Shown here: piece after piece, positions 7,069 to 43,523 of the stretch
Layout: the number at the start of each line of letters is the position of its first letter
Position numbering within the stretch: the stretch's first letter is position 1
Source: a virus
Lineage: Duplodnaviria > Heunggongvirae > Uroviricota > Caudoviricetes
IMG/VR virus record: IMGVR_UViG_2519899835_000003
Reading direction: 5' to 3' (one strand)
Length of the DNA stretch: 64,000 nucleotides
Translations under genes and position numbers: made by a program
The notes under the pieces: generated by a model
Told to the model about the DNA's origin: nothing
What the model saw: the letters and a program-made list of their open reading frames with translations, nothing else
Database searches by the model: none

Positions 7069-10000
7069 TTAATCCACTCCCACTTTTTTGTTGTACTCGC
7101 GGTTAAACCGATCCACGGCAACCTTCATATCCCGCTCTACCGATTTCACCATCGCCGCCTGCTGCGCCAGACTGAGAGAACTGTCGGCATAAATGGCATC
7201 GCGCTGTTTGCGCAAATCCTTCAGTCTCTTCCGGGTATCCTGCATAAGCCCGTTCATCAACAATTTTCCGTTGTTCTCGTCAATGAACGCCGTTCTTTCT
7301 GCACCGGTCAGACTCTTCAGCTCTGCGTGATACTGCGCAACCTCTGTCATCCGGTCGTACATCTTCTGCTGGTCTGCATACGGCATCACCTCACCCGAAA
7401 TTTTCCCCAGGAAGGGCACCTGCTGTTCCGGTATATCAATACCATTCAGCGATTTCACCGCCGCATCCGTGGTTTTGGAAATGAAGCGCCCTGTCCCTCC
7501 GGAGATATAGTCAATCCAGAATTTCAGCGATTCCGGTGTGATATCCACCGCGCCGGGACGATACTGGCTGCCACCTGAGAACGCATTCAGCCAGAATGCA
7601 AACGCCTTGTACGCTTCTGGCGTTGAACGTCTTCCCAGCTGGCTGTCAGGTTTTGGTGTACCAAACGGCATGTTCTCCTGGTAAATCTGCGCCCCCATGA
7701 AGTTTTCGTTCATGGAAAGATTCGCAAACGGACGCAGAATTGTCGGTGCTGCATTTTTCAGCAATGCCCCCGACAACGTTTCCGACGTCTCGCTGCCGAT
7801 CGGGCTGAATGCCCCCAGGATACCGCCGACAACATTACCGGCAGCACGTGAAGCAGTCAGGTCGCCCGCTGCCACACCTTCAGCTGTATGACCAAGCAGG
7901 AAGAACACGTTGTACCCGTAAGGCAGAGGAATACTCCAGTACTCACCGGCCTTGCCCCCGAACATCGATTTCATGATGACGAGGTTACGCTCTTTCACAT
8001 GAGACGGTACTTTGTCGTACCAGTTAACCCCGTCATCATCCTCACCCGCCACACTGCGGTTAAGCGAGCCAAGCAGATAACCCGCTCCCACAGCTGCAAG
8101 CACGATTTTCTGCGGTACATTGAGATTCTTCCAGCGAAGGCGCTCCAGTAACGGCCCGTCGCCATTAAGATGTCCGAGCGTTCTCACCAGGTTTGCGGTC
8201 CCCTGAATGCTGGCGTTGGCAAACATGTACAGCGAGTTCATCAGCATCCCCTGCTCACCACGACGGTTAAAGTTCACCGTCATGTTTTTGGCAAGAGACG
8301 CCGCCTGCTGGCGTGACAAACCGGCATCACGGGCGTGTTTATAGGCAGAAAGACGCAGAGCGTTTTCAACCGCGCCGTTGGCATCCTCGACCAGGTTCAG
8401 GAACGAATGCCATGCACCGATACTCTGGCCTTTCCATCCGCCCTTCGCCAGCGACACAAGGCGATCCATTTCCTTCTGCTGGCCCTCAAGGTCACCCATG
8501 TTAAACCAGCCGGTTTTACCTCCGTCCTCAACAAACTCTTTCCACACTTTCTGCCACTGTGCGCCTTTGCCCGTGAGGGTTTTACCCCGCAGACTTGCGT
8601 ATACGGCTGACATGGCGGAACGGCTGTCTTTCACCACAGCCAGCGCGGATAAGTTATCCAGCTCTTTCAGTTTACCGTCGCTCCTTCCCTGCTCAGCCTT
8701 CAGGTTCATCACCGCAGTCTGCACGTCACGGATGAAGTTACTGACCAGAAATTCCGGGTTATACGACGTGTTCACCGTTGCCAGGAAGCGGTTAACTTTC
8801 CCCAGCGTACGGATTACGGCGTTACTGGTTTCCGGCCCCATGTTCTTCATCGCACGCATCAGGCGCGGATCATGAAGTTTAATGTAGTAAGTTTTGCCGT
8901 CCTTTTTGGTGGTGAAGTAGCGATCCGCCATCATTGCCATCGGCACAGGGCGCTCGACAACTTCGCGAATGGTTTCACCAGTTTCCTGGTCCTTGCGCTC
9001 TGCAATCACACGCATTGTATCCGGTCTGTCATCAGTGAATACCTGCCAGTAATCCTTGTCGGGATTATCCTGTACCAGTTTCAGGAAGGCGTTACCCACT
9101 TCATTTTTGCGATTGCGGATCAGCGATTCACTCAAATCCTGTATCGCCTGAGTGGAAGGAGACTGTGCGCGGGATGCACGCCCCATGGCCTGCTTACTTT
9201 CACGCCCGCCGATGGTGAATCCCTTGCCTGTACGTGGCTGTGACACCACACCGTCAACATCCTGCCCTTTCAGGGGGACGTAGTAACGGTAGGCTTTCTG
9301 CCAGGCATCCACCACGCCGCTCTCTTCCAGTCCTGCCTCACGGATAATCTCACGGCGACGGGCCAGCATATCGTCAATAATCCCTGCCAGACGGTCATAC
9401 TGTGCCTGTTTGCCGCTGTTACGCACACGCTGCATGATTTCCGTCGCTTCCGCGTTGGTCATCCCCGAACCGCCGTCCGGCATTTTCGGGTTGATTTTCG
9501 CAATATGCACGTTACGTTCCGGCGCGTGACGGGCGTAGAGGTACTCATCCAGATCGGCCTGCGCAATTTTGTAGTCCGCCAGCAATTTGGCCAGCGGCTG
9601 AACGTAGCGCTCCTTCATTACGTTCAGGTCGTTTTCCGCCTTCCCGTGGAAGAGTTCTTCAGCCATATAGGCGTTATTGCTGTCATCTATTTTTCCGCCA
9701 GTTTTACGGATATTCTCCTGCACCGCCTTCAGCACCTGGAATTTATCCTGCATCTGGCGAACAAAACGGGATGCAATTGTCTCTTCCGGCGTCAGACTGC
9801 TGGTGCGGGAGTAATACGGCCCCTTGCGAATATCTTCAGGATAGAGTATTTTATCAACAGAGCCGCGATAAGAATGTTCCCCTTTGGGCAATTGGAGCCC
9901 TCTGTGCAGAAGGTTATCGCGGCTTAATTTTTCTCTCCGGTACAACGTTAAACCGGTCATTTCCATACTCTTCAGTTTTTTCCCGTTTTCCGTACCGTAA

Positions 10001-13000
10001 ACAGATGCCACCTTGTTGATTTCCAGGCGCGACCGGACAGCCTTCATGTGTACCGCTGACACCACCGGATCACCATTTTTATCCACGGCATCAAGCAGCA
10101 TCACAACCGCGTTTCTTTCTGTCGCGGAACGGTAAATTGCATCCGGATCGTGCATCAGTTCCGGTAGTCTCTCGATAACATCCATCGGCACCACATGTTT
10201 CACACCATTGGTGGCCTTACGCACAGTGTCGCGGGAGATAACCAGCGGCAAATCTGGTGCGCCAAGGTGACGCAATACCGGCGGCGTACGCCCGATGTTT
10301 ACCGTTAAATCCGTTGAGCGCAGAGACTTCATCATTCTGGCAAGGTCATCACGATAACGCTCGCCCTCACCTTCCGGCACTTTGAACGGATCAGGCTTAC
10401 CGCTACGGGAGTACTGAGACGATGCGTCCGCGCCATCCTCACGCGGCGTGTAACCTTCCCGCACACGCTGGCCTAACGTGCGAATAGTTTCGCGAACAAG
10501 TCTGATATCGTTCAGTTCCGTCGGCTTCAGTAACCCCGTACGACGCAGTACCCCTTTGACCAGGGCAACAACACGCTCCCATGCCGCCACGAATTTAATC
10601 GGCTGCTTCTCTGCCATATGCGCCAGAAATTCACCCGCCTGCACTTCCGGTGATTCCTTACCATAAGACGCATCAACCTTACGCCAGGCTTCACGGATGG
10701 TGGCGTTATCACTGTCACGGGTTTTCAGCACGGTCTTAATAATCGTCTGATATTCCGCTGGCGTGACTACATGCTCCATTGCATGGTGAATAATCTCGTG
10801 ACGTAACTTCTCGCGAACGGTCCGCCCGTCAGGGATGTTATCCGCCACCAGGACAATTTCACGTTTATCCGGACGATAGAACGCGTGCACCTTGCCGTAA
10901 CCGTCGAATGATTCACCCGCCAGTGCTTCAGCCTCTTTCTGTGACTTCACCACGCGGACCTTCAGGTCACTGTCCTTAATGCCACTAATCACGCCACGGG
11001 CAACAGCTTCAACCTGCGGGACCGGACTGCCTTTGGCTTCCGCACTACGGTTAACATCCGAAATCAGATTGCCTTCAGGTGTGCGGGTCACGCCCTTACG
11101 GGAATAAAACGCAACTCCCTTGTCCGTCTCACGGGTTTTCAGTGTTCGGAACAAGTGATCGAATGCCTCACGAATACCGCCATCCAGTTCTGCATTCGTC
11201 GGATAAGCGTAGGTGTCCGGCTGTCCATGGTCATCCGCCTTACGGATATTGACCAGATAATCATTCTCCACGCCAGCCATACGCGCTTTATCCTGAACAT
11301 AACGCTCAAAGGCTCGCGCCGCCATTTCAACATCCGTTGACCAGTACGGTTTTGAACGAACGCCATCCAGGCGTTCAGAACGACGCAACATGTCACTGCT
11401 GTTAATGGCTTTCATCACGCCTTTAAACGCGTCGTAAACCTCCTGACGTACCGGATATTCCGCATCAACATACCTGCCGTCTTTAAATACGCGCACGGCA
11501 CGCTGTGCTTCCGTCATATAGTCGCCACCTGACGTGATCTTCCCGTCAGTGGAAACATCATAACGACCAAAATAATTATCCAGTGAATGGAACCATTCGT
11601 GGGCCAGCGCCCCCGGTCCGTTACCTTTTGTCAGGTTGATTGCCACCTCACCCGGCTCATAGTGTGCCGCCGCCTTACCCTTACCACGGGCACCAAAAGC
11701 AAGCCCAAGACGACCGTTCAGAGAAAGCGCTTTTGTCGGCACGTTCAGCACGTCAGCCAGGTCATGCAGCGAGTCATAAGCCCGGTTCAAATCAGCCTGA
11801 CGACGCGGACTTTCCACATAATTACCAAACTGCACACCACGAAAACCAAACGCATCACTGAACTGCTCCGGCGAAACATCCCCCTTGCGGCGTTCTGGTC
11901 CGGTACGATCGCGGTTGGTGGCGTTACGCTGCTCCTCACGCGAGACTTCACGCAGCGCCTTCACCTGATTAACCAGCTCATCACGATGTGTGCGCACATA
12001 ATCATGTGCATCACGGGCAGACTCAAAACCGCCCTTCAGTTTCTGCCTGTTTTTGCCATAACCGATAAAAATGTCGCCACTGGCCTTATGCCGGTACACG
12101 TCAAAGGTTATTCTGTCATCAGCAGAGGTTGCTGGCGTTTCCCTTTCTCTGGAGCCTTGTTCATCGAAATATGCTTTCGCCTTTTTCAGTAACTCATCCC
12201 GGCTTTCCGAGAAAAAGAGGTCGCGCCCCTTGCTATCACGAAGCGAATACATCATTTGCGGCGGATCGTAACGTTTTCCCCCGACAAACGAATAAACACC
12301 GGACCTGACACGATAGCCGGATGCTTTATCAATCTGCAATGCAGAAAGCGTACGGAGCAGTTTCCAGGTATCCGACATGCTCCGTAACCCCGGCTTACTG
12401 TCCATCATATCAGCCAGTTTCGCTGCCGGAATTTTCCCCTCCAGCATACCGGCAGTAGCTTCGCGACCGCTTTTAACAATGCTGATCCATTTCTGCATGT
12501 TACGGCTTGTTCTGGTGGGAATTTCACTGCGATACAACGCCATCATTGCCAGCGTGTCACTATCCACACCTTCTTTTTCCAGACGGGCATAATCCGGCTT
12601 TGGAAACAGTTTGCTCAGTGGTTGTGTCGCGTACTCCCCATCCTCCAGCGTTTTACCCATAGCTTCAGCAAGCTGCGCATAACGGTGTTTTGCCGCGCCC
12701 TTAATCTCCTCGCCAAAGTCTTCAATTTTCGCACCACGCACCTGCTGGTGAGTGCTCGGTTTATCTACCGGCACCGGCACCTCAGTATCCGGAACATCGG
12801 TTATGGTCTGGCGATTATCCCCGGTCTGTCTGCGTGCTTCTGCCTGCTGTGCCAGTTCCGGAAGGGAGTCACGAACCATACGAGGGAGTGATTCAGGCTG
12901 TGGCATATCAACCCCACGCTGACTTTCAGGTGCAGGAAGTCCTTCACGCACTGGTGCTGTGGCGTTCTGCTCATCCGGTGACGGCAGACCACGACGAACT

Positions 13001-15420
13001 GTTTCGCCCTCCAGTATTTCCCCCTGGCGACCAGCGGCATTTTCCGGTGCCTGCGCACGTCCTTTCTGGAAACTCTGGCCCTTCACCTCACCGGTTGTGG
13101 TAAAACGACCACCACGTCCGGCCTGATTTTCATCCGGCGTACGCGCCACTTCTCCTGGTAACGGATATCCCTGTCCGGGATGAATATCGCCGGGAGCGGG
13201 AAGGCGTGGACGCTCAGTTAACTCCTGTGCTGTCGGACCGGCATCACCTTCAGCCATCTGGGAACGCACCAGTTCTTCCGCCGTCGGCGCGTTGCCACGG
13301 GCAAGACGGGCCTGCACTTCTGTATCATCCCCCGTAAAACCACGGAATCGCGGGTCACGCATGAACGCGGGCTGTTCCATCGGATCAGCATCAGTAATAC
13401 GCTCTCCGTCAGCCAGAGTGTTAATGGTCTCCGTTGCCACATCTTCAGAGAACGCAGGATTATCCATTTCAACGGCATACTGATTCTCGCCTTTCTTCAC
13501 TACGGACGGTTTCAGGCCGGTGGCGCTGGCATTGCGGAAAACGTCGCTCCCCAGAGCACTTTTTTCATCCGTGAAATAACGGTTGTCCGGACGCACCTTT
13601 TCAATGCGTTCTGCTGGTCTGGACGCACCACTCTCGTTAATTTCAATACGAACTTCATCCGGATCGCGGAACCGCACCGTCGGGTAAATACTCCCGTCGC
13701 CATCATCCGCATTTTCCGGCTGTGGCTGTGCCTCCGGTCTGGCCTCCCGCTGAGGGCGAAGCACATCACGTATTGCCTGTAACTGCTGCTCTTCAGTATC
13801 AGTACGCCCTTCCTTCTGGCTGAGTTTTCGGTATTCCTCAAGCAGTTCAGGGCGCGGCTTCGCCTTCAGCTCATCCATCACCGCCTGTCGCTTCGCCTGT
13901 TCATCCAGTTCATTCAACAGCTGGCTGGCGGCTTCCCGGCGATGAACGGCAGACGTGTCTCCCTCATGTGCCATATCCGCATCAGCATACTGTTCCAGAA
14001 GCTGCTCGCGATTCATCCCCTGCATAGATTCACGATGCTGTGCCACCGGATCAACCGGTTCGGGTTGCGGAGCCGATTCGTCCTGAGGAACGCTTTCAGC
14101 CTCACGCATGGCTGCTTCATCTGCCGCCTGACGTTTTCCACGATATCCGGCAGCCGCACCGAATGGTGCCCCCATTGCAGCACCAAGGGCTGCACCTTCG
14201 ATCGTTGCGTCAGCCACGCCCTCCCACGGTGACACATCCATTCCGGCGGTCTCACGCAATGCCGTGTTTTCCTGATAGCGTGAATAGCCACCCTGCGCCG
14301 CATTAATCGTCCCCTGTTCCGTGGCATTTCTGACAATGCCGCTTTTAACGGTCTTCGCCGTGCCCCGCATCGCCAGATTAAGCAACTGAGCATCGCCCAG
14401 TTTTGCCGCCATGGCATTCACAGCCAGCAATTCAGGATCGGTTGCCAGTTGCGCACGCACCTCATCGGCAACACGCTCTTTTGCCAGGTCCATTTTCTGG
14501 CGGTCAGTAAGCTGCGCGTGCTGCGGATCTGCATCAATTGACAAAAAGGTCTGCTGAAATTTCGGTGACTTCGCCAGCTCAGAATAATCCGCGTTAAGAA
14601 CAGCATCTGCCGCTGCCATTGCACTCCGCCCTTGCGCACTGACAGTGGAATGGGTGATCAGGCCTGCCTGGAAAAAATCCGGCATTTTTTTATCGACAGC
14701 TTCGGCTGCCAGTGCTGTGGCTCTTTCCGGCTGCATCCCTACCGCGATGTATTTTTTCTCCAGCCCGGCGGTCAGCACTTTTCGCAGAGTGACATCACCC
14801 AGCTTTTTAGTCACACCGCCTGCAACCATATCCGGTACAAGCGCACCAATCAGGTTAACCCCTTTCGCTACCCAGACCGCTGAATCATCATATCCTTCAG
14901 TCATCGGTGTATTCAGCGCCCGCTGCGCCCCCGGCGACATCTTGCCAGTCAGCCATTCATCCGAGGCTTTAGCGCCGCCACTGACTGCCTTGCCTGTGAC
15001 CTTCAGACCTTTACCGACAGTATCAGTAACCGCATTTTTTCCATCAGGCAGAGTGTCGATGACCTCATCCGCCCCCTTGCTGCCACCGACAAAAATATCC
15101 TGAACAGTTGCTACTCCCGGCAGCCCCATACGGCTGAACTCATTTAAAATACGTGCCCCTGTTTTTACCGGGCTCTGAATCATCGCATCACCGAGTCCAC
15201 GGGCCATTTCCCCTGTCCCCCGGACGGACTGGGCGACACCTTTCCCCATAGTTGGCAATACATCGCCCAGGCTGAACGACGTGCTGTTGTCCTTCCAGCG
15301 ATTGGGATCGGAGAAAAACACATCATAGCTGTCAGTCTCTCCCGGCTGCTGAATGTTCAGGCTGTTGCGGCTCTGGTTGCCAAATTGCGCTTCAGGGCGC
15401 TGTTCATCGGAATAAGCCAT
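7069..15420 (-). CDS. Giant multidomain virion protein (2,783 aa) with two HExxH zincin-like motifs; probable injected internal/ejection protein
   Basis: Single uninterrupted 8,352-bp ORF with ATG start, last gene of the minus-strand virion module. Contains ALAHEWFHSLD (about 11,590-11,600) and LRHEIIHHAMEH (about 10,775-10,800). Confidence 0.8.
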   Translation of the reverse strand: MAYSDEQRPEAQFGNQSRNSLNIQQPGETDSYDVFFSDPNRWKDNSTSFSLGDVLPTMGKGVAQSVRGTGEMARGLGDAMIQSPVKTGARILNEFSRMGLPGVATVQDIFVGGSKGADEVIDTLPDGKNAVTDTVGKGLKVTGKAVSGGAKASDEWLTGKMSPGAQRALNTPMTEGYDDSAVWVAKGVNLIGALVPDMVAGGVTKKLGDVTLRKVLTAGLEKKYIAVGMQPERATALAAEAVDKKMPDFFQAGLITHSTVSAQGRSAMAAADAVLNADYSELAKSPKFQQTFLSIDADPQHAQLTDRQKMDLAKERVADEVRAQLATDPELLAVNAMAAKLGDAQLLNLAMRGTAKTVKSGIVRNATEQGTINAAQGGYSRYQENTALRETAGMDVSPWEGVADATIEGAALGAAMGAPFGAAAGYRGKRQAADEAAMREAESVPQDESAPQPEPVDPVAQHRESMQGMNREQLLEQYADADMAHEGDTSAVHRREAASQLLNELDEQAKRQAVMDELKAKPRPELLEEYRKLSQKEGRTDTEEQQLQAIRDVLRPQREARPEAQPQPENADDGDGSIYPTVRFRDPDEVRIEINESGASRPAERIEKVRPDNRYFTDEKSALGSDVFRNASATGLKPSVVKKGENQYAVEMDNPAFSEDVATETINTLADGERITDADPMEQPAFMRDPRFRGFTGDDTEVQARLARGNAPTAEELVRSQMAEGDAGPTAQELTERPRLPAPGDIHPGQGYPLPGEVARTPDENQAGRGGRFTTTGEVKGQSFQKGRAQAPENAAGRQGEILEGETVRRGLPSPDEQNATAPVREGLPAPESQRGVDMPQPESLPRMVRDSLPELAQQAEARRQTGDNRQTITDVPDTEVPVPVDKPSTHQQVRGAKIEDFGEEIKGAAKHRYAQLAEAMGKTLEDGEYATQPLSKLFPKPDYARLEKEGVDSDTLAMMALYRSEIPTRTSRNMQKWISIVKSGREATAGMLEGKIPAAKLADMMDSKPGLRSMSDTWKLLRTLSALQIDKASGYRVRSGVYSFVGGKRYDPPQMMYSLRDSKGRDLFFSESRDELLKKAKAYFDEQGSRERETPATSADDRITFDVYRHKASGDIFIGYGKNRQKLKGGFESARDAHDYVRTHRDELVNQVKALREVSREEQRNATNRDRTGPERRKGDVSPEQFSDAFGFRGVQFGNYVESPRRQADLNRAYDSLHDLADVLNVPTKALSLNGRLGLAFGARGKGKAAAHYEPGEVAINLTKGNGPGALAHEWFHSLDNYFGRYDVSTDGKITSGGDYMTEAQRAVRVFKDGRYVDAEYPVRQEVYDAFKGVMKAINSSDMLRRSERLDGVRSKPYWSTDVEMAARAFERYVQDKARMAGVENDYLVNIRKADDHGQPDTYAYPTNAELDGGIREAFDHLFRTLKTRETDKGVAFYSRKGVTRTPEGNLISDVNRSAEAKGSPVPQVEAVARGVISGIKDSDLKVRVVKSQKEAEALAGESFDGYGKVHAFYRPDKREIVLVADNIPDGRTVREKLRHEIIHHAMEHVVTPAEYQTIIKTVLKTRDSDNATIREAWRKVDASYGKESPEVQAGEFLAHMAEKQPIKFVAAWERVVALVKGVLRRTGLLKPTELNDIRLVRETIRTLGQRVREGYTPREDGADASSQYSRSGKPDPFKVPEGEGERYRDDLARMMKSLRSTDLTVNIGRTPPVLRHLGAPDLPLVISRDTVRKATNGVKHVVPMDVIERLPELMHDPDAIYRSATERNAVVMLLDAVDKNGDPVVSAVHMKAVRSRLEINKVASVYGTENGKKLKSMEMTGLTLYRREKLSRDNLLHRGLQLPKGEHSYRGSVDKILYPEDIRKGPYYSRTSSLTPEETIASRFVRQMQDKFQVLKAVQENIRKTGGKIDDSNNAYMAEELFHGKAENDLNVMKERYVQPLAKLLADYKIAQADLDEYLYARHAPERNVHIAKINPKMPDGGSGMTNAEATEIMQRVRNSGKQAQYDRLAGIIDDMLARRREIIREAGLEESGVVDAWQKAYRYYVPLKGQDVDGVVSQPRTGKGFTIGGRESKQAMGRASRAQSPSTQAIQDLSESLIRNRKNEVGNAFLKLVQDNPDKDYWQVFTDDRPDTMRVIAERKDQETGETIREVVERPVPMAMMADRYFTTKKDGKTYYIKLHDPRLMRAMKNMGPETSNAVIRTLGKVNRFLATVNTSYNPEFLVSNFIRDVQTAVMNLKAEQGRSDGKLKELDNLSALAVVKDSRSAMSAVYASLRGKTLTGKGAQWQKVWKEFVEDGGKTGWFNMGDLEGQQKEMDRLVSLAKGGWKGQSIGAWHSFLNLVEDANGAVENALRLSAYKHARDAGLSRQQAASLAKNMTVNFNRRGEQGMLMNSLYMFANASIQGTANLVRTLGHLNGDGPLLERLRWKNLNVPQKIVLAAVGAGYLLGSLNRSVAGEDDDGVNWYDKVPSHVKERNLVIMKSMFGGKAGEYWSIPLPYGYNVFFLLGHTAEGVAAGDLTASRAAGNVVGGILGAFSPIGSETSETLSGALLKNAAPTILRPFANLSMNENFMGAQIYQENMPFGTPKPDSQLGRRSTPEAYKAFAFWLNAFSGGSQYRPGAVDITPESLKFWIDYISGGTGRFISKTTDAAVKSLNGIDIPEQQVPFLGKISGEVMPYADQQKMYDRMTEVAQYHAELKSLTGAERTAFIDENNGKLLMNGLMQDTRKRLKDLRKQRDAIYADSSLSLAQQAAMVKSVERDMKVAVDRFNREYNKKVGVD

Positions 15421-15432
15421 ACAGACTCCATA

Positions 15433-15458
15433 AAAAAACCCGGCACAATGACCGGGTA
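15433..15458 (-). terminator. Candidate rho-independent terminator between the 421-aa gene and the giant gene (approximate)
   Basis: Minus-strand reading gives CCCGG-loop-CCGGG hairpin followed by a T run (plus strand: AAAAAAACCCGGCACAATGACCGGG). Confidence 0.35.
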
Positions 15459-15488: not shown

Positions 15489-16754
15489 TTACTGCGCGTA
15501 ATTCTGTTTCAGACCACGGATAAACTCAGATGCAGAGGCCGCGCTATCATCCCTGGCCTGTTCCCCCCTGGCCTTTTGAATACGGAGAAAATTCGCATAC
15601 CCGTGTTCCAGCAATTTCTGATTCTGAGGCTCCAGCATTTCTGGCTGACGGGAGGCCACTTCTCTGGCAAATGCCTGCTTATCCGGATCATCACCCGCCC
15701 AACTGGTAATCCCTTGTTGAATTTTTTGCTGCTGAATTTGCTGCTGATACTGCGGCAGTCCCATCGAAGCATAATATTGCGTCACTGCTCCCTGCGCATC
15801 ACCGCCGTCCTGTGCAACCTTTATCGCTACCTGGCTGGCTCCTTTCTGAAGTTGATCCGCAGAAAGTCCCTGCTGCTTCGGCGTGAAATAGCCGAAATTT
15901 TTCGAAATTTCCGCGAATTTACTGCGATCCCTGACAAGCTCAACAGCCTTATCAACAGGCACCGCCAGCACGGTTTGATCATCAGGATGTGCACTGCCGT
16001 ATTCCGTAACGGGTTTATGTGCTGTAGAGCCATCACTGTATGTGAGATCAAGGCCGATAAGTATGTACCCTTCCTGCTGTGCCGGTACTATACTGCCAAT
16101 CCTGGCCTCTTTTATCGTCTTTTTCCCGGTTGAATCGGGCATGCCAATACGCTGTTGCAGTTCCGGGCCAAACACCCCGGAAAGGACATCAAGATTCTCC
16201 GGCGTATTAAGTGAAGCGATAGCCCTGTCTGGCTTGTCATCAAAGATTTTTTGCAGGTTGTTCACGGCCTGACCCGCTTTCGCTACATAGCCATCATTCG
16301 CCATCAGCCTCAGCGGATTACCCTCTGACAACTGGCCGTAAAGACGCATTGCTGCATCCCGATCGCCAGCATCCACAGCCTTTCCAAGCGCCGCCATCAC
16401 AGGCTGATCGCGCGCCAGCATATCGTTATACTCAAGCCGTCGCTGGTTGTATTTCTGCATCCGGAGTCGCTGCTGCTCCATACCCAGCGACGCATTCCGG
16501 TAATTCTGGTTGGCGTTAAACTCCCTTTCCTGCAGTGCATAATTACGGTCGTCGACTTTGGCTCTGTAATCAAAGTTCCGCTGATCAACGTCTTTATTAT
16601 GTTCAAACTGCGACTGTGCAAATTCAAAATCGCGCTCGTTATTTTTCTGTTGTTGAGCAAGCTGTGCTTCTCGCAAACCAAGTTCCTTACGACGGGTCAT
16701 TGCCTGGTCAACCGTGCTGAATCCGGCAAGTAAACCCTGTGCAAATCCGCTCAT
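15489..16754 (-). CDS. Probable internal virion/ejection protein (421 aa)
   Basis: Q/N-rich low-complexity protein immediately upstream of the giant gene in the virion module; position-based call. Confidence 0.45.
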   Translation of the reverse strand: MSGFAQGLLAGFSTVDQAMTRRKELGLREAQLAQQQKNNERDFEFAQSQFEHNKDVDQRNFDYRAKVDDRNYALQEREFNANQNYRNASLGMEQQRLRMQKYNQRRLEYNDMLARDQPVMAALGKAVDAGDRDAAMRLYGQLSEGNPLRLMANDGYVAKAGQAVNNLQKIFDDKPDRAIASLNTPENLDVLSGVFGPELQQRIGMPDSTGKKTIKEARIGSIVPAQQEGYILIGLDLTYSDGSTAHKPVTEYGSAHPDDQTVLAVPVDKAVELVRDRSKFAEISKNFGYFTPKQQGLSADQLQKGASQVAIKVAQDGGDAQGAVTQYYASMGLPQYQQQIQQQKIQQGITSWAGDDPDKQAFAREVASRQPEMLEPQNQKLLEHGYANFLRIQKARGEQARDDSAASASEFIRGLKQNYAQ

Positions 16755-24897: not shown

Positions 24898-27543
24898 TTA
24901 TTTCTCTTTAAGGTCGCTAATCTCTTTACGCAGATTTTTTATTCCTTCAACTAACAGTGCAATAACACCATTATAATTTAATCGAAATCTCTCTTCACCA
25001 GATATGATATCTGTATCAGATGTAACTAACTCTGGTTGAGCCTTTAACGCATCCTGTGCAAATAATCCCACAGATTGTTGCCAACTGCCATCAGCATTCT
25101 GTATTTCATACAAATAACCCGTTAGCAAGTCAAGCTTCTCCAGACAATTATCTATTCGTATTGCATTTCGCTTGTTGCGTTTATCCGAACGGATCTGAAC
25201 ATCGTTAAATGAGCCGTTTCCGGTCACCGTCAAATTGCCATTAATACCACCATTAAAAGTTTGTGCCTGAGTCCATGTATTGGCAGTAGTAAGCAGTTCT
25301 GTTCCTTGCCCGGGGGCTCCTGTGTCTCCCTTCGGTCCCTGCGGCCCTTCCGGACCTGCTGGACCTGCTACTCCCGGATCACCTTTATCGCCTTTCGGCC
25401 CCGGCGCACCTGCCGGACCTGCTGGTCCAGCCACCCCCGGATCGCCTTTGTCACCTTTTGGCCCCTGTGCGCCTGCCGGGCCTGCGGCTCCCGTATCCCC
25501 TTTCGGTCCCTGTGGCCCCGCCGGACCTGCTGGTCCAGCCACCCCCGGATCGCCTTTGTCACCTTTTGGTCCCTGTGCGCCTGCCGGGCCTGCAGCTCCC
25601 GTATCCCCTTTAGGTCCCTGCGGTCCTGCCGGGCCTGCGGCTCCCGTATCCCCTTTAGGTCCCTGCGGTCCTGCCGGGCCTGCGGCTCCCGTATCCCCTT
25701 TAGGTCCCTGCGGTCCTGCCGGGCCTGCGGCTCCCGTATCCCCTTTCGGTCCCTGTGGCCCCGCCGGACCTGCTGGTCCAGCCACCCCCGGATCGCCTTT
25801 GTCACCTTTTGGCCCCTGTGCGCCTGCCGGGCCTGCGGCTCCCGTATCCCCTTTCGGTCCCTGTGGCCCCGCCGGACCTGCTGGTCCAGCCACCCCCGGA
25901 TCGCCTTTGTCACCTTTTGGCCCCTGTGCGCCTGCCGGGCCTGCGGCTCCCGTATCCCCTTTCGGTCCCTGTGGCCCCGCCGGACCTGCTGGTCCAGCCA
26001 CCCCCGGATCGCCTTTGTCACCTTTTGGCCCCTGTGCGCCTGCCGGGCCTGCGGCTCCCGTATCCCCTTTCGGTCCCTGTGGCCCCGCCGGACCTGCTGG
26101 TCCAGCCACCCCCGGATCGCCTTTGTCACCTTTTGGCCCCTGTGCGCCTGCCGGGCCTGCGGCTCCCGTATCCCCTTTCGGTCCCTGTGGGCCTGCCGGA
26201 CCCGTATCGCCCTTGTCTCCCTTCGGGCCGGGAACGCCACCACCTGCAGCAACCTCTTCTGCCTTCTGTCTCGCCGCCTTGGCCTCATCCATTGCCGCCT
26301 TCACAGCCTTCGACGTGGCAGCCTTTGTTTCGTCATTACTGGCAGTATCACTACTTAGCTGCACAATTCCCTTCTGTGCCGTCGTCGCGTCCACCACATT
26401 TGCTGCGCTGCCCGCCGGACCAGGCTCCCCGCGGGGGCCCTGCGGCCCAGCTTCGCCTCGTTCACCTTTCGGACCTGCCGGACCTGTCGCACCGGCATCT
26501 CCTTTCGGTCCCTGCGGCCCCGCCGGGCCTCTCTCTCCTGCAGGTCCGCGTAGCCCCTGCTCTCCCTGAGGCCCTCGTTCTCCCGGCTCACCTTTTTCAC
26601 CTGCGGGACCGGCTGGTCCGGTGTCACCTTTAGGTCCTGCATCACCTTTCGGCCCGGGTGGTCCCCCCGGGTCTCCGGGGGCTCCTTTTTCACCTCTGGC
26701 CCCGGTTTCACCTCGTGGACCAGCAGGCCCCTGAATCCCCCGCTCTCCTTGCGGCCCCACCGGTCCTGTTTCACCGCGTGGTCCTTGTGCGCCTTGTGGA
26801 CCTGTTTCTCCACGAGGGCCTGCATCACCTTTCGGTCCGGTATCACCTTTAGGGCCTCTGGCATTCTCTGCCATACGCCTGGCCTCTTCAGCACTAACCG
26901 TAGCAGCCTCAGCACGTTTAAGAACGTCTCCGGCGGCCTCATGAGCCACTCTGGCGGTTTCAGCATGTTGTCTGGCATCATTCGCGTCTGCTGCCGCGGC
27001 CTTTTCAGACTCGCATGCCCGGGTCGCCGCTTCTGCAGCTTCACTGGCTTTTTGTCCGGCTTCAGCCGCCCTGCTGGTTGCCGTCTTTGCACTGTCAGAT
27101 GCACTCTTCGCACTGGCTGCTGCACTGTCTTTTGACTGTGTGGCCTGAGTGTTTTTTGTCGCCGTGTCTTCATTCAGGCGACGAATAGTGGCAAGGTCAT
27201 CAGCCACATTATTCTGTATCTGCCGGAAATCTGTCAGCAGTTCTCCGGGTATGCTAACCTCAACAAGACTGCGGCGTAACAGCATATTGAGCGTCACCGT
27301 ACTTTCGGTCCCCTCAATACGCACACGTCCGTAGACAGCAGTCTTCCCTTTCACCGTCACCGAAACCGCATACTCCCCCGGATCCATCGTCATTCCGTAA
27401 TATCCACCTTCACGGGTCACTGCCGACGCACTGGTGCCGCTGAGCGCATCCGGTGAAACTGTCAGCGCCGTCAGGGTAATATTTGCTCCTGATATCGCCT
27501 CACCATCAGGAGATTTCAGCGTCCCCGAAACAACAACACTCAC
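24898..27543 (-). CDS. Side tail fibre with collagen-like Gly-X-Y repeats and C-terminal intramolecular chaperone-type domain
   Basis: 881 aa; two long GXY blocks ([36 protein letters not shown] repeated); C-terminus ...[27 protein letters not shown] resembles the auto-cleaving chaperone of tail fibres/endosialidases. Confidence 0.8.
25250..26250. repeat. Tandem near-identical 108-bp (36-codon) and shorter 45-bp units inside the tail-fibre gene (approximate bounds)
   Basis: DNA lines from about 25,430 to 26,200 repeat almost exactly; the supplied six-frame track shows long artefactual ORFs on both strands here. Confidence 0.8.
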
Positions 27544-40222: not shown

Positions 40223-42133
40223 TTATGCGGCTGCTCCAGCTTTGTTTGCTTTAACTTCCACCGTATCAATAAGTACAGGGTAGGTTTCTGCACTACCTGT
40301 AATATCCGTAATGACAAACCTGTTGAGTCCATTAGCAGTATTGGCCCATTTCACCAGGTCAAACGCCTGTCCATCCACACCATCGAGCACCGGAGTAACA
40401 TTAATGCTGTTACTGCCCTTAAATTTAAATGCAAGCGTATGCCAGTCATGGTCGAATGCGCCAAACGTGCCAAGTTCTTTTTGTTGATTAACTGTATGAT
40501 GGTATGCAACATTAATACTGGCTTTATCTGTCTGGACAAAGAAAGAACTCAGATGGCCTTCACCACCCTCACCCGGCCATTCCGCTATTCGCCAGTACAA
40601 ACCAAAGGCATACTTGTTTCTGGTTGTCTCAAGATTGACGTTTTCGGGGATTTTAAACCGGACAGCAATTTCCCCGCCTTTTTCCAGTAAAAGTTTTGCC
40701 TTGTCTGCAGCAATATCACAGTACATTGACCAGGATTTCGCGCTGTTATTTTTCTCAATTCGCAGAGCTTTATTGCCGCTGTCATCAACCAGTGTGCGTC
40801 TGCCATACATACCGTCCCAGCCATAAGGTTTCAGCTGATTGTCTGTAGCTTTTTTGGCATCGTAAAAAATTACAGACTCTGAGGTGGTAACCGGCCTGTC
40901 TGGAACAACCACCCCGGCAGTACCATTAACAAACGCAGAAGACTTACCCGCGCAGCTCAGAATCGCCGTTGCCAGACGGTCGGAAATAATCCCACGGCGA
41001 GCCCATGAACTGAAATGGCTCGCCCTGTCCTGTGACGTCCAGGTGGCTGAGCTGTCACGCCATTTCGAACCGTAATATCCGATACCCGGAATGTCCGGGT
41101 CTTCTTCCGGTTTGTTCGTCGGCACATTCACCCCGTTCTCATCCGTCATGAACGGTACGAAATGGATATTCTTTTCCGTTTTATTTTTATAGCTGCCGTA
41201 CACCGTCTGGTACGTGGATTCGTTCTTCTGCTTCCAGAAATACGTCGTGTCCCCGCATATCCAGGGAACACCGCCAGCAGAGCCACCGACGCACTGGCCT
41301 GCCATATCCGCCAGGTCTGCACGGAATTTATCAACCAGCGCACCAAACTGTGCGGCATGATTTGCCGGCGTACCGCCAAAATCAAATTCCCCCTGCATCC
41401 ACACCACGGCAAACAGCACATTTTTCGGGTTCTTCTCCAGTGCCGCTTTTGTTCGACCGATAAGGTCCTTATACAGCGGCTTGTCCACACCCCAGCGGGT
41501 TGAATTCTCCGAGGCACCACTCGCGTCACTGTATGTGCCATCAGCTCCGGTGGTGAACGCTGAACCACCACGACAGCACGGAACCAGCAGAATGCCCGCA
41601 TTCGCCGGTATAAACGGCAGCAGTTTTTTGGCGATATGCAGCCCCTGCCCCACGGTTCCGTACTGCCCCTTTGACAGGTCCGCTTTCGGATGGTTAAGAC
41701 GGCTCATGTCCTGCACATCATGCAGACAATGGTCCGCCGGAATGATGTCGTTATATTTGCATGCTGCACCGCCCGGTGTCACCGTACTGCGACGCGCTAA
41801 CTGTTTAATACGTGGATCAGGGCTGTCGAATGTATCCGGTAATGGCAGTCCCTCACCGTATGACATACCATTGGACTGACCAGCAAGCGCGATCACATAG
41901 TAATATTCTGGCGCAACAGAAGGCGCTGAGGTCGTCGGACGGTTGCCTGGCTCCTCTGGTGATGAGATGCTCCCCTCACTCACAACTGGCTGGATGAACT
42001 CCGCACCATAACCAGCTGTCGAAATCAGCGCACTACCATAAGGCTGCCACCCTTCCTTCAGTTTTTGAGTTATTCGTTTCGCAAGGTCTGACGGCGACGC
42101 CGCCCTGACAACATCATAGTGTTTAAATGCCAT
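40223..42133 (-). CDS. NanS-p-type prophage esterase (DUF1737 N-terminal domain + SGNH/SASA 9-O-acetyl sialate esterase domain)
   Basis: N-terminus MAFKHYDVVRAASPSDLAKRITQKLKEGWQPYG and YYYVIALAGQSNGMSYGEG serine-esterase block; position between Q and the lysis genes as in Stx phages. Confidence 0.7.
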   Translation of the reverse strand: MAFKHYDVVRAASPSDLAKRITQKLKEGWQPYGSALISTAGYGAEFIQPVVSEGSISSPEEPGNRPTTSAPSVAPEYYYVIALAGQSNGMSYGEGLPLPDTFDSPDPRIKQLARRSTVTPGGAACKYNDIIPADHCLHDVQDMSRLNHPKADLSKGQYGTVGQGLHIAKKLLPFIPANAGILLVPCCRGGSAFTTGADGTYSDASGASENSTRWGVDKPLYKDLIGRTKAALEKNPKNVLFAVVWMQGEFDFGGTPANHAAQFGALVDKFRADLADMAGQCVGGSAGGVPWICGDTTYFWKQKNESTYQTVYGSYKNKTEKNIHFVPFMTDENGVNVPTNKPEEDPDIPGIGYYGSKWRDSSATWTSQDRASHFSSWARRGIISDRLATAILSCAGKSSAFVNGTAGVVVPDRPVTTSESVIFYDAKKATDNQLKPYGWDGMYGRRTLVDDSGNKALRIEKNNSAKSWSMYCDIAADKAKLLLEKGGEIAVRFKIPENVNLETTRNKYAFGLYWRIAEWPGEGGEGHLSSFFVQTDKASINVAYHHTVNQQKELGTFGAFDHDWHTLAFKFKGSNSINVTPVLDGVDGQAFDLVKWANTANGLNRFVITDITGSAETYPVLIDTVEVKANKAGAAA

Positions 42134-42898: not shown

Positions 42899-43333
42899 TT
42901 ACGATCGTAAACTATTTTTTCGCTGATAAAATACAGAGGTTCTCCCTCCCGGCAATTCACGCTCAACATACCGATCCATCTCAAGCCTCACTCCCAGCAT
43001 CATCAGCATGCCTTCAACAATCCCCTCCGCTTTGTGAAGGCGTTTACCTATACAGGTGTCAGAGCACCCATGTTTCCGTGCCAGCGCCATGAACGTCTCC
43101 CCCAACACGTAGTAATCAACCAGCAAGTCATGCAGATCGCGATTGTTCCGGTAAAGGCGGGCTATGCACCCGCATATCACCATCGCATCATCGTCACAGC
43201 ACTGTGGACGTGATTTTACTTTTTCGGGGATCAGTCCCTTAAATCCGGCAGCAATGGGCGACCATGTAACATCCTCATAGTTATTTACCGCCCATGCCCC
43301 CCAGCGCTCAAGAACCTGCCGGATATCACGCAT
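42899..43333 (-). CDS. Late-gene antiterminator Q (DLP12 QuuD-like)
   Basis: [34 protein letters not shown]...[16 protein letters not shown] matches the QuuD-type Q family; start set at internal ATG overlapping ninH. Confidence 0.75.
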
Positions 43334-43523
43334 CAGTATCTTTACCCCATCCGCGATGAACCATAAGGACGCCATTGACGACGGCGTGCTTTTTCGCATC
43401 TTTATCATCAATGTATTTTCTGACTGTAGCACGATTGCAGTTCAGTATTCTGGCGACTTCTGTCTGATTTCCCCTGGTGCAGATCAGTAATTCAGGTATC
43501 GTTTGAATTTTAGCATTCATCAA
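43326..43523 (-). CDS. ninH: NinH-like protein
   Basis: ...[30 protein letters not shown]...[10 protein letters not shown] resembles lambda NinH; directly upstream of Q. Confidence 0.65.

Follow-up and report, generated by a model that had tools for sequence, protein, structure and literature searches.

The window, by which we mean the whole 64,000-nucleotide (nt) stretch of tailed-virus DNA analyzed here (IMG/VR record IMGVR_UViG_2519899835_000003), contains a giant gene at positions 7069-15420 on the minus strand, the product of which is a phage-type polyvalent protein of the short-tailed Shiga toxin (Stx)-type phages (Sepvirinae). This 2,783-amino acid (aa) protein probably acts in ejection from inside the virion, a function essential for infection, and would carry effectors and self-processing peptidases as well. 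The protein itself is a known object, annotated in RefSeq as an LPD5/LPD38 protein, and represents no new kind of system. What the present analysis adds is that its two HExxH domains both represent conserved zincins, of which one has no Pfam model, that the MuF-C and AAA+ assignments made for its orthologues are corrected, and that its architecture combines fixed ends with a variable middle.

The PHROG 616 profile (2,793 positions) matches the whole protein end to end (6,167 bits), and the gene shows 90-99% DNA identity to 186 phage records, nearly all of which belong to Stx-converting phages. It is the final gene of the late (virion) operon and has the same place in Stx2 phage 86, where the integrase gene comes next. 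On the strength of the profile match, the DNA identity and the last-late-gene position, the gene is assigned as the orthologue of ORF80 of Sp5/VT2-Sakai (ECs1242), gp47 of phi24B (vb_24B_48) and gp35 of Stx2-86. These proteins are likewise encoded by the last late gene, span 2,783-2,811 aa and contain both HExxH motifs in identical sequence contexts; Stx2-86 gp35 (Sepvirinae, Traversvirus) is 89-100% identical at the amino acid level per 100-residue block over most of its length. The gene is present in 427 of the 5,426 complete Escherichia coli genomes, with 100% DNA identity in strain NCCP15648.

The case for a role in ejection comes from published experiments on these orthologues. Deletion of Sp5 ORF80 (2,793 aa) abolished both plaque formation and lysogenization, and the defect was complemented; the mutant still formed DNase-resistant genomes and normal-looking heads (PMC5155283). 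The essentiality of this orthologue, with DNA still being packaged, implies that the protein belongs to the infection apparatus and is more than an accessory carrier of counter-defense functions. In phi24B, gp47, for which LPD5, LPD1, LPD38 and MuF-C domains are reported, is abundant in virions, is missing from the cryo-electron microscopy map and has been proposed to be an ejection protein (bioRxiv 10.64898/2026.04.10.717836). In the proteome supplement of that study, gp47 accounts for 10,962 spectra, a count exceeded only by that of the capsid protein, and its peptides extend from residue 133 to residue 2504, so that both zincin domains and the C-terminal module are represented. The packaging suggested by the initial annotation is accordingly borne out, with the orthologue as the source of the evidence. 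Normalization of spectra per residue to the portal gives a rough estimate of about 20 copies of gp47 per virion, on the presumption that the spectra come from a batch sample; applied to the hexameric nozzle and the 18-copy lateral fiber, the same arithmetic yields about 6 and about 22 copies, respectively. Hence the properties that characterize an ejection protein, namely location inside the head, a requirement for infectivity and DNA packaging that does not depend on the protein, are all found in the literature on the phi24B and Sp5 orthologues. A more distant relative, the 2,198-residue LPD38 protein of Escherichia phage PTXU04, is needed for efficient infection (bioRxiv 10.1101/2023.09.18.558157).

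The assignment to the polyvalent class, foreseen by the initial annotation, rests on the domain content. Pfam matches above the curated cut-offs were obtained for LPD5, LPD1, MuF_C and LPD38, all of which are families defined on polyvalent proteins (Iyer et al., 2017, PMC5512222); LPD38 is restricted to the phage-type polyvalent proteins (PMC5512222). The protein thus unites in one very large polypeptide several unrelated domains, including those of the LPD type, and two zincin domains. The zincin-like metallopeptidase hub typical of the class is represented by two conserved HExxH domains, one of the CLCA_X type and the other with a predicted zincin fold. The gene lies in a virion-gene neighborhood and its product is packaged, the evidence for packaging coming from the phi24B orthologue rather than from the prophage in the window. 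Zincin hubs, MuF-C, LPD domains and a virion-gene neighborhood are likewise found in the phage-type polyvalent proteins described by Iyer et al. (2017). The giant protein lacks the common nucleic-acid-modifying hubs of the class, namely the methyltransferase, the SWI2/SNF2 helicase, ParB and the ADP-ribosyltransferase, and differs from it in one more respect: the role proposed for polyvalent proteins is accessory, whereas the Sp5 orthologue is essential. The gene and the domains of its product, from the N-terminus to the C-terminus, are as follows:

7069-15420, minus strand: giant gene, ATG start, 2,783 aa plus stop codon (from the list of open reading frames (ORFs) and the translation)
14041-15420, minus strand: conserved N-terminal module (aa 1-460), recurring at the N-terminus of many giant phage proteins
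14122-14205, minus strand: glycine zipper GxxxGxxxGxxxG (aa 406-433; G413, G417, G421, G425), with the glycines kept in 27-31 of 31 sequences
12784-14040, minus strand: Pro/Glu/Gln-rich low-complexity linker (aa 461-879), from the composition per 100 residues
11851-12783, minus strand: unnamed 'mid' region (aa 880-1046) followed by LPD5 (aa 1047-1190; Pfam E-value 4.5e-43)
11131-11850, minus strand: first zincin, CLCA_X type (aa about 1191-1350), then LPD1 (aa 1351-1430), from NCBIfam and Pfam
11587-11601, minus strand: HExxH motif 1, HEWFH (aa 1274-1278), within the CLCA_X match
10411-11013, minus strand: second zincin, gluzincin-like (aa 1470-1670)
10786-10800, minus strand: HExxH motif 2, HEIIH (aa 1541-1545), from the motif scan
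10630-10632, minus strand: Glu1597, candidate third zinc ligand, 56 residues past the first His of motif 2
9934-10203, minus strand: MuF-C (aa 1740-1829), PBECR predicted-RNase type (Pfam PF18819, E-value 1.4e-17)
7072-9924, minus strand: conserved C-terminal module (aa 1833-2783), about 950 aa, the homologues of which end giant proteins
7408-8025, minus strand: LPD38 (aa 2466-2671; Pfam E-value 6.8e-47)

The extent of the ORF is exactly that given by the initial annotation, which had also recognized that the ORF closes the virion module and had placed two zincin signatures near 11,590-11,600 and 10,775-10,800, some 250 residues apart; the motifs are 267 residues apart. From the His and Glu content of the protein, only 0.039 HExxH motifs would be expected by chance. 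Both motifs are conserved in distant homologues and lie in zincin-type domains in which the metal-binding residues are intact; catalysis by these domains is predicted. In a profile-profile comparison, the strand and the HExxH helix of the first domain align with those of the second (probability 82%, E-value 1.1e-5).

The first zincin is covered by the NCBIfam model NF041907 (CLCA_X), which matches residues 1172-1427 over model positions 3-245 of 250 (E-value 6.5e-45). The score, 153.5 bits, is below the 260-bit curated cut-off of the stand-alone family, so that the match shows homology of the domain rather than membership in that family. CLCA_X is a zincin family, a sister to the CLCA metalloprotease domain, that is found mostly in phages and plasmids, often within proteins of more than 1,000 residues (Lenart et al., 2013, PMC3650047). 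Residues H1274, E1275, W1276, H1278 and D1281 are invariant in all 23 homologous domains, giving the extended motif HEWxHxLD. The conserved Asp that follows HExxH is shared with the CLCA_X family consensus (PMC3650047); the spacing in motif 1 is HExxHxxD, whereas the same paper writes HExxHxxxD. The LPD1 domain follows immediately (aa 1351-1430; Pfam E-value 7.9e-23).

The second zincin is covered by no Pfam model, either in the giant protein or in 34 homologous domains; a tile-wise Pfam search of the protein at an E-value of up to 10 gave sub-threshold hints only, namely Peptidase_M76 at this HExxH motif and the Gly-zipper family. An exhaustive HMMER search with residues 1470-1670 detected 355 representative proteins at E-values of at most 0.001. 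Among the 148 of these that were retrieved, 121 are no shorter than 1,000 residues, the longest reaching 6,026; a few others are solo proteins of 210-270 residues. Across 145 aligned domains, E1542, H1545 and E1597 are each present in all 145 and H1541 in 143. The predicted structure contains the elements that define the gluzincin fold, that is, a beta-sheet, the HExxH helix and a third ligand on a later helix; Glu1597 is residue 128 of the model, within the helix 122-135, and both zinc binding and hydrolysis are predicted. The structural neighbors of the domain include anthrax lethal factor, Certhrax, Pro-Pro endopeptidases, minigluzincins, SprT/Spartan, Wss1, IrrE and ArdC. In 18 of 20 proteins, the second zincin begins 15-61 residues after LPD1, and in 11 of 18 it ends no more than 68 residues before the C-terminal module, a position that would suit a putative dedicated protease freeing that module after delivery. 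A 489-aa Pectobacterium protein consisting of the second zincin and MuF-C was considered as an autonomous unit and rejected as a remnant of a decayed prophage. In a Salmonella enterica variant (P0018) that is otherwise collinear, an insertion of about 300 residues separates LPD1 from the second zincin; its motif DDTLTQGGTL resembles the phosphoribosyl pyrophosphate-binding loop of phosphoribosyltransferases, and the insertion is an example of cargo gain.

Homologues of the C-terminal module, 35-77% identical and with more than 60 invariant alignment columns, close giant proteins with differing upstream domains. In other phages, the domains that precede it include a methyltransferase, the ADP-ribosyltransferase ART-PolyVal, LPD3, inorganic pyrophosphatase, lytic transglycosylase and RelA/SpoT. 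Among annotated phages, the module is found in Stx phages, about 100 Vibrio phages, Ralstonia phage GP4 and its relatives, Burkholderia phage DC1, Bacteroides and Bacillus podophages and the Methanosarcina virus MetMV. The GP4 protein, gp68 (3,224 aa), possesses the same C-terminal LPD38 module and is likewise the product of the last structural gene; GP4 and phi24B share the same portal and tail architecture (bioRxiv 10.64898/2026.04.10.717836). Identity is 27-40% for GP4, DC1 and the Vibrio phages and 16% for PTXU04, which is a structural match; the upstream cargo domains of these proteins differ. The structure model of the module (predicted local distance difference test score 79.3) shows mainly helices together with a small beta domain; one helix of the module (aa 2435-2457) is hydrophobic. 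All 75 matches to this model among the predicted viral structures of BFVD are giant phage polyvalent proteins, including that of PTXU04, and comparison with solved structures revealed no meaningful relative. A 981-aa Amphritea protein that consists of the C-terminal module only was likewise discarded as an autonomous unit, being a decayed-prophage remnant.

In MetMV (MK170447.1, 40102-42492), the LPD38 module shows 28.6% identity over 88% of the query (E-value 6e-84); by this similarity, the module is common to bacterial and archaeal tailed viruses. A considerably broader generalization, which we consider tentative and rather doubtful, is that the second zincin would define an uncatalogued gluzincin family (at least 355 representative clusters, no Pfam model) and that the LPD38 module, for its part, would constitute a universal essential DNA-delivery chassis of a large group of short-tailed viruses, from the Stx phages to a Methanosarcina virus.

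The opposite end of the protein is also conserved. The N-terminal module is located near the N-terminus in 40 of the 148 retrieved related giant proteins, with M1 aligned in 30 of 31 sequences, and contains one moderately hydrophobic segment (aa 181-199). Its glycine zipper, for which the matches to the Pfam Gly-zipper models are weak and below the cut-off (E-values 0.08-0.2), might possibly serve as a membrane-insertion element. The linker that follows has no family match in the tile-wise Pfam search and, judging by its composition, is probably disordered. It carries three R-x-LP(A/S)P-(G/D/E) repeats at aa 740, 812 and 828 (nt 12925-13203, aa 740-832). The structural neighbors of the second zincin include the Pro-Pro endopeptidases. 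The repeats were considered as possible cleavage sites; they are not conserved in distant homologues.

Between the fixed ends, the mid region, LPD5 and the first zincin co-occur in the same order in homologues and, with LPD1, move as one cassette. The invariant residues of mid and LPD5 are D901, G903, K911, R1165, N1169 and R1172. The same two regions form the most variable stretch between the Stx-phage lineages. Relative to the Sp5/Sakai orthologue, amino acid identity per 100-residue block is 83-99% outside residues 801-1200 (95-99% in most of the protein and 83-85% in two N-terminal blocks) and only 56-76% within them, the mosaic stretch itself corresponding to positions 11851-13020 (aa 801-1190). 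This divergence suggests either cassette exchange or diversifying selection. The order of modules along the protein is fixed across homologues, and the architecture is one of fixed end modules around a variable, swappable middle.

Based on the above considerations, a mechanism can be sketched in which several copies of the protein would be packed into the head (that of phi24B has a T=9 capsid) and would exit via the tail as infection begins, either before the DNA or together with it. The N- and C-terminal modules would then represent a fixed chassis that provides for packaging and exit and aids in crossing the envelope, accounting for the essential function, and the central cassettes, namely the LPD5 cassette and the RNase-like MuF-C, would be swappable cargo that acts in the host. 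After delivery, the two zincins most likely would process the polypeptide itself or a partner protein into functional pieces. The distinction between chassis and cargo is suggested by the succession of differing domains upstream of the same C-terminal module, by the fixed module order and by the divergence of the LPD5 cassette between lineages.

Several observations weigh against this scheme. The particles of the Sp5 ORF80 deletion mutant are no longer bound by the anti-tail-fiber antibody (PMC5155283), which suggests that the protein contributes to tail attachment or particle stability, as a pure ejection model does not predict. Ejection into the host is inferred, both here and for the orthologues, and the peptidase and RNase activities, as well as counter-defense, are predictions. 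Only two moderately hydrophobic segments are present in the protein, so that a classical membrane channel is not evident, and the C-terminal module resembles no solved ejection protein. The distribution of gp47 spectra over the gel, highest in the top slice and declining through the lower slices, is compatible with partial cleavage and also with smearing or with decay over six months of storage; the per-slice counts are at the protein level and the peptide counts are pooled, so that fragments are not assignable.

A different function inside the virion has been proposed in the phi24B preprint, where MuF-C is named a metallopeptidase (bioRxiv 10.64898/2026.04.10.717836) and the protein is envisaged as a cell-wall-digesting ejection protein, its metallopeptidase cutting peptidoglycan and its conduit reaching the inner membrane. 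A short-tailed phage must indeed cross the cell wall, the protein is inside the virion and contains two genuine zincin domains, and in some relatives a lytic transglycosylase precedes the same C-terminal module. However, MuF-C is classified by Iyer et al. as a PBECR domain, a predicted RNase (PMC5512222); the match to PF18819 scores 64.1 bits against a cut-off of 27.6 bits, and 18-20 of 20 homologues retain H1742, H1791, K1735, D1758 and S1806. The metallopeptidase assignment of MuF-C is thus unsupported, and the true peptidase domains of the giant protein, with activity predicted, are the two HExxH domains. Furthermore, the peptidases that are structurally close to the second zincin (lethal factor, Pro-Pro endopeptidases, SprT, Wss1 and minigluzincins) cleave proteins, and the Pfam and NCBIfam scans produced no peptidoglycan peptidase family. 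Digestion of the cell wall is accordingly an unlikely function, although it is the strongest of the competing proposals.

Slightly less likely still is that the protein is a purely accessory carrier of counter-defense activities, comparable to DarB of phage P1 and dispensable on hosts without defense systems. P1 DarB is similarly large, packaged and injected; the 'DarB-like antirestriction' family PHROG 10089 matches aa 2344-2671, overlapping the LPD38 region, and RefSeq names the GP4 homologue DarB-like. A counter-defense role has been proposed for polyvalent proteins in general (PMC5512222), and the unusual divergence of the LPD5 cassette between lineages is what would be expected of an arms-race effector. 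The 'DarB-like' label, however, rests solely on the shared C-terminal LPD38 region. As the initial annotation had stated, the protein has no Walker A, DEAD/H or (D/N)PPY motif: a motif scan of the whole protein found no G....GK[ST], no DE[AH][DH] and no [DN]PP[YFW], and a Pfam scan found no P-loop, helicase or methyltransferase family. The methyltransferase and helicase domains of P1 DarB are therefore not found in the giant protein, and its separation from the DarB-type methyltransferase-helicases holds. The PADLOC defense models gave no match. The Sp5 orthologue is essential for both plaques and lysogens in a laboratory K-12 background, its loss also removes tail-fiber antibody binding, and the PTXU04 relative is needed for efficient infection. 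A purely accessory carrier is thus contradicted both by this essentiality and by the lack of methyltransferase and helicase domains.

The authors of the Sp5 study suggested that ORF80 is an AAA+ ATPase, based on a COG1483 match (PMC5155283), in which case the protein would drive tail assembly; the DNA-filled heads without detectable tail fiber that are produced by the deletion mutant would be explained by such a function. This assignment is highly improbable given that the Walker A motif is found nowhere in the protein, that no P-loop or AAA family was matched in Pfam, NCBIfam or PHROGs, and that the protein is one of the main components of the virion, unlike an assembly factor. The least credible alternative, and one that can be practically dismissed, is a conventional tape-measure or tail-fiber protein with chance HExxH motifs, as might be imagined from the great length of the protein and its place at the end of the structural gene block: no such family was matched in Pfam, PHROGs or NCBIfam, the phage is short-tailed, the protein is missing from the resolved tail, both motifs are invariant over hundreds of distant homologues and the fiber genes are located elsewhere in the window. 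Neither of the outcomes that the initial annotation had named as refuting it, a tape-measure or fiber match and absence of the protein from virions, was observed, the virion evidence being that of the orthologue.

The known podovirus ejection proteins (T7 gp14-16, P22 gp7, gp16 and gp20, and DEV gp71-73) show neither sequence nor fold similarity to the giant protein, and sequence searches against all chains of the Protein Data Bank, with the whole protein and with profiles of the C-terminal module, both zincins and the mid-LPD5 cassette, returned nothing significant. The closest functional parallel is provided by the virion RNA polymerases N4 gp50 and DEV gp71, which comprise about 3,400-3,500 residues, are contained in the virion of a short-tailed phage and have been proposed to be ejected; the 3,398-aa enzyme of the N4-like phage DEV would, according to that proposal, leave the virion as a component of an apparatus that spans the cell envelope (PMC11445570). 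The giant protein, unlike these enzymes, has neither an RNA polymerase domain nor detectable sequence similarity to them, so that the analogy is functional only. The window's capsid protein is annotated as a member of the N4-gp56 family.

Shiga toxin genes spread among E. coli by way of the short-tailed Stx phages, and the giant gene, which accounts for about 14% of the genome of these phages, is needed for infection. The four catalytic residues, the glycine zipper and the C-terminal module present themselves as targets for mutagenesis.

Two further features concern the start of the gene and that of its orthologues:

15426-15429, minus strand: ribosome-binding site GGAG, located 5 nt before the start codon (ATG at 15420), as seen in the sequence itself
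436-474 of L006 (VT2-Sakai) and 1349-1387 of L007 (phi24B): annotated 13-codon extension of the orthologues (database annotation)

In the RefSeq/GenBank records of Sakai and phi24B, the orthologue starts 13 codons further upstream, with the sequence MPGHCAGFFYGVC-MAYS... This longer start is probably an annotation error because the MAYS start agrees both with the 2,793 aa reported in the Sp5 paper and with the ribosome-binding site of the window. A terminator-like hairpin (15432-15456, minus strand), consisting of CCCGG, an 8-nt loop and CCGGG followed by seven T, precedes the ribosome-binding site of the giant gene and follows the stop codon of the gene before it; homology with the window indicates that the 13-codon extension probably overlaps this hairpin. 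Late transcription would presumably pass the hairpin by Q antitermination. The phi24B record additionally lists three small antisense ORFs within the orthologous gene.

The gene directly upstream (15489-16754, minus strand) encodes a 421-aa protein without a Pfam family that belongs to a PHROG of unknown function. Its orthologue in Sp5 (ORF79) is essential, with the same phenotype as the giant gene, and that of phi24B (gp48) is present in virions (1,634 spectra); the 421-aa protein may be a partner of the giant protein.

The gene for the antiterminator Q (42899-43432) is separated by a gap of only 766 bp from a NanS-p-type esterase gene (40223-42133). This gap, the usual site of the toxin operon in Stx phages, contains neither tRNA genes nor an ORF with the size of stxA or stxB, and the prophage in the window appears to be stx-negative, unlike its Stx-converting relatives. 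An 881-aa tail fiber is encoded at 24898-27543 (minus strand) and comprises seven collagen-repeat stretches, a phage fiber repeat and, at its C-terminus, a Peptidase_S74 chaperone domain; its counterpart in Sp5 is the collagen-like fiber ORF67.

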